A stretch of DNA of 4,122 nucleotides from a virus (lineage: Duplodnaviria; Heunggongvirae; Uroviricota; Caudoviricetes), in the IMG/VR virus record IMGVR_UViG_2734482004_000012, one strand, 5' to 3'. The notes under the pieces were generated by a model. The model was not told the origin of the DNA, did not search any database, and worked only from the letters and a program-made list of their open reading frames with translations. Position 1 is the stretch's first letter. Each line of letters opens with the position of its first letter. The translations under genes were made by a program, and so were the position numbers. This document shows, piece after piece, positions 1 through 3,582 of this stretch.

Positions 1-151
1 GTATTAAGCATGGATCATTAAGCCTGTCTCTGATAGGCTCATTCTGCTTTTGCGCAAAGCAGTGGGCCTGAGGTTTGCTTGTGATCCGGACGCATGAGCA
101 GATGGCTGGTGGGTGCCCCTAACACCCACCAGCCGCCCATTTACCACAAAT

Positions 152-175
152 AAAAAAGCCTTCACTGCGGAAGGC
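152..175 (-). terminator. Putative rho-independent terminator after the 65-aa ORF
   Basis: Plus-strand gccttc (158-163) and gaaggc (170-175) form a 6-bp stem with loop actgcg. On the minus strand the hairpin is followed by UUUUUU (plus A-run 152-157). It overlaps the stop codon of ORF 162-359. Short stem, so moderate confidence. Confidence 0.4.
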
Positions 176-359
176 GTCTGTAACAACCGAACTGATAGTC
201 TGCCAGACCCGCCATAACCAGCTGAGTCAGTATTAACTGGCAGCGTTCGCGTGAAAGGTAAGTATTCTGCGCTATCTCCCCGACTGTCGCCGGGTCGGTA
301 ACGCTTAATTCATTAAACACCACTCTGGCGGTTTCTGTCATATCCTGCTGTTTTAGCAT
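162..359 (-). CDS. Hypothetical small protein (65 aa), possible winged-helix/HTH DNA-binding protein
   Basis: ATG at 357-359 preceded by AAGGA about 6 nt upstream on the minus strand. The segment TVGEIAQNTYLSRERCQLILTQLVMAGL resembles an HTH recognition unit. It lies between two terminator-like hairpins. No family recognised from memory. Confidence 0.45.
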   Translation of the reverse strand: MLKQQDMTETARVVFNELSVTDPATVGEIAQNTYLSRERCQLILTQLVMAGLADYQFGCYRRLPQ

Positions 360-3159: not shown

Positions 3160-3186
3160 AAAAAACAAAACCCGCCGAAGCGGGTT
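3160..3186 (-). terminator. Rho-independent terminator ending the hok transcript
   Basis: Minus-strand RNA reads AACCCGC-UUCG-GCGGGUU followed by UUGUUUUUU (plus stem 3169-3175 / 3180-3186, loop 3176-3179, A-rich 3160-3168). UUCG tetraloop, GC-rich stem, U tract. Confidence 0.55.
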
Positions 3187-3189
3187 ACG

Positions 3190-3205
3190 TGCGGGTGCGT
3201 TGAGG
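3190..3205 (-). promoter_or_regulatory. 3' fold-back (fbi-like) element of the hok mRNA, complementary to the 5' leader element at 3568-3582
   Basis: Plus 3190-3205 tgcgggtgcgttgagg is the reverse complement of plus 3568-3582 cctcaagcacccgca apart from one extra g. It lies immediately upstream of the terminator hairpin. Confidence 0.45.
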
Positions 3206-3254
3206 ATGCCTGACACATCAGAGGTGGCGAGGGATTTCTCCCTCGCCGGGTCTC

Positions 3255-3410
3255 TTACTCCTCAGGTTCGTAAACTGTGAAGACAGCGACCTCCGTCTGG
3301 CCGGTTCGGATTCGTACCTCGCAGAGGTCTTTCCTCGTTACCAGTGCCGTCACTATGACGGTTAAACAGATGACGATCAGGGCGATTAACATCGCCTTTT
3401 GCTGCTTCAT
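3255..3410 (-). CDS. hokD: Hok/Gef family type I toxin (51 aa), HokD/RelF-like
   Basis: Product MKQQKAMLIALIVICLTVIVTALVTRKDLCEVRIRTGQTEVAVFTVYEPEE has the single transmembrane helix and the conserved RKDLCEV...TGQTEVAVF core of the Hok/Gef family. It is near-identical to HokD/RelF as I remember it. SD AAGGAG 9 nt upstream of the ATG at 3408-3410. Confidence 0.85.
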   Translation of the reverse strand: MKQQKAMLIALIVICLTVIVTALVTRKDLCEVRIRTGQTEVAVFTVYEPEE

Positions 3411-3467
3411 AGCCTGCTTCTCCTTGCCTTTCGGCACGTAAGAGGCTAACCTAGATTTGCCGTTCAT
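3255..3467 (-). CDS. Mok-like in-frame leader ORF (70 aa) overlapping hok
   Basis: ATG at 3465-3467 with GAGG 8 nt upstream. The N-terminal extension MNGKSRLASYVPKGKEKQA is in frame with Hok. It resembles the MokC extension (...KVKEKRAMKQHKAM...) as I recall it. In hok-family loci, Mok translation is what allows Hok translation. Confidence 0.5.
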   Translation of the reverse strand: MNGKSRLASYVPKGKEKQAMKQQKAMLIALIVICLTVIVTALVTRKDLCEVRIRTGQTEVAVFTVYEPEE

Positions 3468-3567
3468 AGATTGAGCCTCAGATTAATGTTAAGCGTCTTG
3501 CAGGACGCGTAATATTAACTGGGGCTTTTCTCTATCTGCCTTTGGTGTTCATGCCTGAGGCAGATAG

Positions 3568-3582
3568 CCTCAAGCACCCGCA
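3568..3582 (-). promoter_or_regulatory. 5' leader (tac-like) element of the hok mRNA, complementary to 3190-3205
   Basis: See the paired element at 3190-3205. It is followed in the transcript by a 9-bp hairpin (plus 3532-3540 ctatctgcc / 3559-3567 ggcagatag). Confidence 0.45.

Follow-up and report, generated by a model that had tools for sequence, protein, structure and literature searches.

A small winged-helix gene paired with an M.EcoGII-type methyltransferase gene and a candidate structured leader RNA in the late region of lambdoid prophages

Genes and late-operon signals in the window

The 4,122-nt stretch of DNA analyzed here, hereafter the window, is a lambdoid prophage segment of Escherichia coli in which all genes are encoded on the minus strand. 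Prophages of UTI89, S88, APEC O1 and many other strains share 99.9% identity with positions 1–1450 of the window. Along the minus strand, the gene order is hok/sok, a small hypothetical gene, a DUF968 gene, rusA, the antiterminator gene Q, an ORF of 65 codons and the first codons of a DNA methyltransferase gene. The stretch spanning Q, the 65-codon ORF (a predicted winged-helix gene, see below) and the methyltransferase start is matched in 3068 of the 5426 complete E. coli genomes, and up to 8 places per E. coli genome match the first 1450 bases of the window.

The upstream part of the window holds a hok/sok type I toxin–antitoxin locus (3255–3579, minus), with an Rfam sok match of 113 bits at 3405–3579 and a Hok/Gef ORF at 3255–3467 (Pfam HOK_GEF). 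Beside it on the same strand, positions 3165–3246 give a sub-threshold match to isrK, a prophage sRNA family (27.8 bits against a gathering score of 50), which ends in a terminator-like hairpin. The DUF968/HNH-like gene (1787–2807, minus) contains a run of ten N at 2053–2062; thus the window stems from a draft or gapped assembly.

The Q gene spans positions 584–1403 on the minus strand, with its stop codon at 586–584, and its product carries the Pfam Antiterm domain (PF03589) and a DnaJ-type zinc finger. Alignment against the intact 273-aa UTI89 gene revealed a 2-bp deletion (TA) near position 1111, which breaks Q of the window into two shorter ORFs, one of 103 aa and one of 175 aa. Either Q is a genuine pseudogene here or the assembly is wrong at this point. 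In the case of a real deletion, only a compatible Q from another prophage could switch on this copy of the downstream cassette.

Between Q and the 65-codon ORF lie a pR′-like late promoter and a tR′-like intrinsic terminator, both on the minus strand. The promoter-like element (539–578) comprises TTGATT at 578–573, a 16-nt spacer, an extended –10 sequence TGgTAAATT at 559–551 and a –10-like AACGAT at 544–539. It resembles the arrangement of lambda pR′ (TAAATT-N6-AACGAT). Given that its 8 of 12 consensus matches fall below the scan threshold, the assignment as pR′ is one that we infer. The terminator (478–501), which lies some 85 nt beyond the stop codon of Q, has a CCCGCC/GGCGGG stem at 501–486 followed by a T-run to about 478, with a folding energy of –12.6 kcal/mol. 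A terminator precedes the ATG of the small gene by 83–130 nt in 31 of 35 related loci, the terminator sequences themselves being different.

An earlier sequence-only reading of this DNA had described the first ORF after the tR′-like terminator as a non-hydrophobic protein of 65 aa followed by a second terminator-like hairpin, and both observations hold. This hairpin with TTTTTTATTT (152–175, minus) has a GCCTTC/GAAGGC stem at 175–158 followed by TTTTTT, with a folding energy of –8.9 kcal/mol, and it encloses the stop codon of the ORF. Its stem covaries across other genera, and a good T-run is present in only 12 of the 35 loci, that is, in a lineage-specific manner. Overall, 4 terminator-like sites were found within positions 1–700 of the window, compared to 0.5 expected from shuffles.

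The 10-mer TGTGGTAAAT occurs twice on the minus strand, once in the –10 region of the pR′-like element (552–561) and once, at 139–148, immediately past the second hairpin and on the 5′ border of the structured leader described below. The two copies are followed by (AT)GGGCG, 11 nt and 0 nt later, respectively, and the second site reads TGTGAAAAT in other genera. Recombination may have left this repeat as a scar, or it may provide a second extended –10-like element.

The continuation beyond position 1 can be read from the UTI89 prophage, which is near-identical to the window. Its downstream order is methyltransferase, tRNA-Ile, tRNA-Arg, tRNA-Arg, a DUF1737 remnant, holin, lysozyme and spanin. 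The lysis genes are indeed found to the left of position 1, where the sequence-only reading would have looked for them: a class II holin is annotated about 3 kb downstream of the 65-aa gene, after the methyltransferase, the three tRNAs and the DUF1737 remnant. An Stx2a phage has the same layout, with Q, the winged-helix gene, the methyltransferase, tRNAs, stx2AB and the holin.

The small gene, its protein and the motif upstream

The 65-codon ORF (162–359, minus) starts with an ATG at 359–357 and ends with a TGA at 164–162, and a Shine–Dalgarno sequence AGGA is located at 369–366, 6 nt before the ATG. The window contains 52 ORFs of at least 30 aa, so that the length of this ORF alone is not above chance. 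The protein matches PHROG 331, a phage family of unknown function, with an E value of 2.8e-37 and 127.8 bits, its residues 1–64 aligning to profile positions 35–98 of 111. The unmatched N-terminus of the profile can be traced to longer database entries whose starts were wrongly called too far upstream. Homologous proteins fall into 333 clusters that all share a core of 63–69 aa, to which the longer entries add unrelated N-terminal extensions. A profile search against 1.8 billion representatives yielded a narrow family of 84 clusters, including many fragments. The proteins are 80%–97% identical within Enterobacteriaceae, and the gene is under purifying selection, with a median dN/dS of 0.20 for 256 usable pairs from 33 loci at saturated synonymous sites. 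Conservation and dN/dS rule out a chance ORF. Judged from the PHROG match, the homologue clusters and the purifying selection, the ORF is a real gene, the family of which is already catalogued as uncharacterized.

The protein is predicted to be a stand-alone winged helix. Its AlphaFold model has a pLDDT of 90.9 and the order H1-b1-H2-H3-b2-b3 of a winged helix (wHTH), which bears out the HTH-like segment noted in the sequence-only reading. A GRAVY of –0.17 and a best 19-residue Kyte–Doolittle mean of 1.06 rule out a holin or another membrane protein. The protein is soluble and slightly acidic, with a pI of 5.1; family members have net charges between –5 and +3, and none of their basic residues is conserved throughout the whole family. 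The most conserved segment is helix 3, xRCQLILTQLxMAGL, which is unusually hydrophobic. The window protein has two cysteines (C40 and C59), and some members of the family have one.

In the Pfam search that the sequence-only reading had proposed, TrmB and MarR_2 were matched at 17.3 and 14.3 bits, and no family reached its gathering threshold (25.6 and 27 for these two) with the window protein. Among its relatives, one member passes DprA_WH (24.8 versus 22.9) and one nearly reaches HTH_45 (24.9 versus 25.5), and homologues bear the NCBI name 'TrmB family transcriptional regulator'. In Foldseek searches, the top matches include winged-helix dimerization modules of small-molecule methyltransferases, and the winged helices of SelB and Zalpha are also among the best structural matches. 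SelB and Zalpha winged helices bind RNA hairpins or Z-form nucleic acid. With the family profile as query, the PDB yielded only insignificant sequence matches (best E 0.11), and a fold search of BFVD gave generic winged helices only. Given the predicted fold, DNA binding is a reasonable prior for the 65-aa protein.

Upstream of the small gene, at 383–419 on the minus strand, there is an unstructured leader motif, CTTGCTG-N12/13-CAGAGTTAY..TGTRTG, located 25–65 nt upstream of the start codon. It is conserved in every lineage aligned, including the divergent loci L127–L131 and an AT-rich locus, and it is kept even where the protein is only about 35%–45% identical. The motif shows no stable RNA fold (z = 0.07) and no clear dyad, palindrome or direct repeat. 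Of 251 loci, 212 contain a single motif, and additional copies are as frequent as expected by chance; this single copy per locus rules out a regulon of such motifs elsewhere in the phage. As to promoters within the leader, a sigma-70 promoter was rejected, given that TTGCTG-N17-TAYNNN lacks the T at the sixth –10 base and the consensus scan found none, and a comparison by eye with the sigma-54 and sigma-32 consensus sequences was unconvincing. Altogether, no other non-coding sequence associated with the gene is as conserved as this motif, which is a candidate operator or promoter. One viral contig (L199) has two leader motifs and two of the structured leaders described below, about 3 kb apart, which suggests a tandem duplication of the cassette.

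The methyltransferase, its structured leader and the mobility of the pair

The gene following the 65-codon ORF starts at the very edge of the window (1–11, minus; ATG at 11–9) and runs off it; by the UTI89 annotation, it encodes an N6-adenine DNA methyltransferase of the M.EcoGII family. The UTI89 enzyme has 349 aa, with an N-terminal DPPY motif and a C-terminal FxGxG motif, and is of the Beta-class N6-adenine type. It is 95% identical to the enzyme of phage 1720a-02, which has been named as very similar to M.EcoGII (PMC5778455). Via this likeness to the phage 1720a-02 enzyme, the downstream gene is assigned to the M.EcoGII family, and non-specific activity is predicted for the window copy. 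M.EcoGII itself methylates adenine in any context, is active alone both in vitro and in vivo, and forms a homodimer (PMC5778455, PMC11551740). It is reported to be silent in lysogens and harmful when constitutively expressed (PMC5778455, PMC11551740). No mechanism was given for this in PMC5778455, where the proposed purpose of the enzyme is to methylate progeny DNA against restriction.

The key point missed by the sequence-only reading is that the small gene and a methyltransferase gene of the M.EcoGII type form a conserved pair. Counting one genome per species, from Escherichia to Proteus, Providencia and Plesiomonas, the methyltransferase gene comes next on the same strand in 33 of 34 loci. 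In these species-level loci, it starts 339–356 nt after the start of the small gene and its product shares 59%–98% identity with the UTI89 enzyme. The sole exception is a decayed remnant, and one further locus has an interrupted enzyme gene. All 74 loci on IMG/VR viral contigs that have enough flank contain the same gene pair. In Klebsiella, Salmonella and Buttiauxella, an N6_N4_Mtase (Pfam) of 344–354 aa comes 134–151 nt after the homologue. A 60%-identical methyltransferase likewise follows the small gene in a divergent branch, whose protein matches the profile with an E value of 4e-6. Searching with the methyltransferase gave 2895 protein clusters at 90% identity; the homologues retrieved are relatives of at least 75% identity only, which is uninformative for distant homologues without the small gene.

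The spacer before the methyltransferase is 133–153 nt long and shows stronger conservation than synonymous sites in the flanking gene. In this spacer, RNAalifold predicts a structured RNA leader of about 140 nt (9–150, minus) with two domains and 33 pairs. A 5′ hairpin domain at 140–94 is followed by a second domain closed by the pairing of 87–77 (GGAUCAcAAGC) with 23–12 (GCUUAaUGAUCC). The closing helix pairs the 12 nt directly 5′ of the methyltransferase AUG at 11–9, and three of its pairs show compensatory changes. In a hand-built alignment, 97.2% of cells are paired, with 9 compensatory pairs compared to 4.8 ± 1.2 in shuffles (0 of 500 reaching this number), and slid controls pair at only 26%–44%. 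A covariance-model alignment of 50 distinct sequences gave 98.3% paired and 10 compensatory pairs compared to 4.2 in shuffles; since this second alignment is fitted to its own model and many changes come from the Proteus/Providencia clade, the independent covariation events are fewer than these counts suggest. The E. coli leader alone folds likewise, with an MFE of –65.1 kcal/mol and z = –5.2; its G-U pairs favor the gene strand, and the covariance-model score of the structured leader is 127.6 bits. Even with E values of up to 10 allowed, the spacer matched no Rfam family on the gene strand, and no Shine–Dalgarno sequence is visible in the consensus before the methyltransferase start, CTTACTGATCTATG. 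In this predicted structure, the start region of the methyltransferase is buried, and the RNA is a candidate new cis-regulatory leader.

Several further features of this spacer are worth recording. A leader peptide was considered and rejected. Neither a 33-aa ORF at 140–39 nor, in other genera, a 7-codon MGGWWVL with tandem Trp codons is conserved at the peptide level; the underlying bases covary as parts of a stem, and Proteus has a different reading frame. A GATC (Dam site) at 13–16 on the minus strand, just before the start codon of the methyltransferase, is invariant across all aligned genera, and its pairing partner in the RNA helix (83–86) is also GATC in E. coli. In a divergent lineage (L128–L130; 3196–3268), the spacer before the methyltransferase is 73 nt long and is made up of a good Shine–Dalgarno sequence and a strong intrinsic terminator, the latter taking the place of the stop-codon hairpin; it has no structured leader, and none was found by the covariance model in these loci.

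The structured leader and the methyltransferase also occur without the small gene, in about 9 of about 109 loci. In some of these loci, a deletion has removed the gene and left the stop-codon hairpin; in others, the late terminator or a different ORF of 131 aa stands in its place. Thus, the small gene is dispensable in cis, and the up to 8 window-matching places per E. coli genome make a supply of the small protein in trans possible. In two viral contigs, L148 (about 1770–2210) and L218, an unrelated ORF of 131–132 aa with no Pfam match precedes the structured leader and the methyltransferase.

Comparison among phages revealed how the pair is exchanged. Phages mEp460 and Evi, which have the same Q, share only positions 478–1449 with the window and carry other genes downstream, whereas phages with different Q genes share only positions 1–501 by BLAST. 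These boundaries at 478–501 place the joint between the Q module and the cassette at the terminator, in agreement with the moron-style insertion put forward in the sequence-only reading. The upstream Q proteins vary in Pfam family (PF03589, PF06323, PF06530 or none), and HicAB, reverse-strand genes or tRNAs lie between Q and the cassette in some loci. By these sequence comparisons, the winged-helix gene and the methyltransferase gene constitute a mobile two-gene cassette, which is found behind late terminators that accompany three or more unrelated Q families. The stretch downstream of pR′/tR′ is a recognized moron site of lambdoid phages (PMC4104026); a first gene other than the holin, which had been regarded as unusual, is therefore ordinary here.

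The neighbors of the cassette are Q, the methyltransferase, tRNAs, HicAB and lysis genes, and no restriction endonuclease gene was found in it. The literature searched, on pR′ regions, M.EcoGII, prophage anti-sRNAs and Pas sRNAs, contains no mention of the ORF or the leader. Accordingly, the near-obligate pairing with the methyltransferase and the conserved structured leader appear to be undescribed in it.

A putative model for the cassette and its relation to known systems

Our best guess, held with modest confidence, is that the 65-aa protein regulates its cassette. In the putative model, Q-modified RNA polymerase would read through tR′ and the second hairpin, and both genes would be transcribed mainly at this stage. 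This dependence of read-through on Q would leave the toxic methyltransferase silent in lysogens and have it made late. The position of the small gene likewise makes it plausible that, as the sequence-only reading suggested, the gene would be expressed only under Q antitermination. In lysogens, the terminators and the start-burying RNA would together keep the enzyme off; late in the cycle, the methyltransferase would methylate the progeny DNA against restriction. Helix 3 (RCQLILTQL core, with Q41, T45 and Q46 probably exposed) would bind the leader DNA, CTTGCTG-N12/13-CAGAGTTA, and this binding would set or limit the expression of the cassette, with no role as a catalytic partner.

Tentatively, we lean toward the winged-helix protein being a nucleic-acid-binding regulator of its own cassette that acts at the conserved leader DNA, while granting that it may well be something else. 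We prefer this reading because nothing else associated with the gene is as conserved as the motif and helix 3, because the motif lacks structure and is present in a single copy, and because the enzyme needs no partner for its activity. Against it stand the acidic-to-neutral character of the protein, the lack of an invariant basic residue and the absence of a dyad in the motif. The Foldseek matches to dimerization domains, the about 9 loci without the gene, the failure to reach a Pfam threshold and the want of a convincing sigma-70 promoter also argue against it.

Some of these very features would fit a protein that binds the enzyme, antitoxin-like or as a targeting factor, and restrains or directs it, either protecting the cell or focusing methylation on phage DNA. 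Such a modulator might well be acidic to neutral with an unusually hydrophobic helix 3, its top Foldseek matches are dimerization winged-helix domains of methyltransferases, the gene is never found without the methyltransferase except in the decayed locus, and constitutive expression of the methyltransferase is deleterious. However, M.EcoGII is fully active alone as a homodimer, some methyltransferase loci have no small gene, and the two genes are separated by about 150 nt with a terminator-like hairpin, unlike typical toxin–antitoxin pairs. We thus regard modulation at the protein level as unlikely.

We give equally little weight to translational activation in the manner of Com, in which the winged helix would bind the leader RNA and open the start-burying helix, so that the enzyme is translated after the late accumulation of the small protein. 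The well-supported leader structure, whose closing helix pairs the 12 nt 5′ of the AUG, would suit such a switch, as would the lack of a visible Shine–Dalgarno sequence in the consensus before the methyltransferase start and the close structural matches to SelB and Zalpha. Phage Mu com-mom offers a parallel in gene order and in the toxic DNA-modifying enzyme encoded downstream. Nevertheless, the RNA and the small gene are separable, which weakens this model: the leader and the methyltransferase occur without the small gene in about 9 loci, and L128–L130 possess the gene and the methyltransferase with a 73-nt spacer that has a Shine–Dalgarno sequence and no structured leader. Moreover, the protein is not basic.

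An independent moron acting on the host or on another phage function, with the methyltransferase linked by co-inheritance only, is likewise improbable: its own conserved leader, its own downstream terminator in E. coli (a classic autonomous layout) and its position at a known moron hotspot speak for it, but no credible sigma-70 promoter was found in the leader, and the linkage survived divergence to 59% methyltransferase identity and the exchange of Q and lysis modules, which in highly mosaic phages argues for functional coupling.

A broader proposal would join the winged helix, the leader motif and the RNA of about 140 nt into an undescribed multilayer safety switch for an enzyme that methylates every adenine, the leader RNA being a new cis-regulatory class; we consider this doubtful. 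Its layers might be insulation by terminators, a trans-acting winged-helix factor and a start-sequestering leader, which might respond to a signal such as the protein, SAM/SAH or temperature. Enzymes of the M.EcoGII type are in wide use as tools for non-specific adenine methylation and are very common in enterobacterial prophages. The Q-dependent late position behind one or two terminators, together with a winged-helix partner and an RNA at the start site, offers a testable account of how such an enzyme is silenced and activated. In Stx phages, the cassette lies between Q and stx, so that its terminators and RNA are on the path of toxin transcription.

Several known systems are comparable to this cassette in part. 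Regulators with MarR-, TrmB-, IclR- or ArsR-type domains carry dimerization helices or effector domains; in TrmB/MarR regulators, extra helices or domains form the dimer. With 65 aa in total, the present protein is a winged helix alone and is without such dimerization helices or effector domains. The Zalpha signature consists of Asn and Tyr in helix 3 and Pro-Pro-x-Trp in the wing, and these residues are absent from the 65-aa protein.

With the morons of lambdoid late operons (stx and sRNA genes 3′ of pR′), the cassette shares the insertion site downstream of pR′/tR′ and upstream of the lysis genes, as well as a presence that varies among phages with the same Q (PMC4104026). Unlike stx and the sRNA morons, it has a regulator-like gene fixed to a methyltransferase, no virulence or fitness gene and no evident promoter of its own.

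The cassette is also reminiscent of the controller (C) proteins of restriction–modification systems, in that a small HTH-type protein is encoded beside a DNA methyltransferase and a conserved sequence lies upstream of its own gene. C proteins are Xre-type five-helix folds that bind palindromic C-boxes and time a restriction enzyme. In contrast, the present protein is a predicted winged helix, the cassette has no endonuclease gene, and the leader motif is not palindromic.

The closest functional analogy, which does not imply membership, is com-mom of phage Mu. Com is a zinc-finger protein (Cys4), and com overlaps mom. The 65-aa protein differs from Com in being a winged helix with two cysteines and no Cys4 zinc finger, and the two genes of the cassette are about 150 nt apart; in addition, some loci have the RNA but no small gene and others the small gene but no RNA, so that the two are not strictly coupled as in com-mom. 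In both systems, nonetheless, a gene of about 60–65 codons lies directly upstream of a late, cell-harming, adenine-modifying enzyme used against restriction, and an RNA structure, here a predicted one, occludes the start region of the downstream gene.
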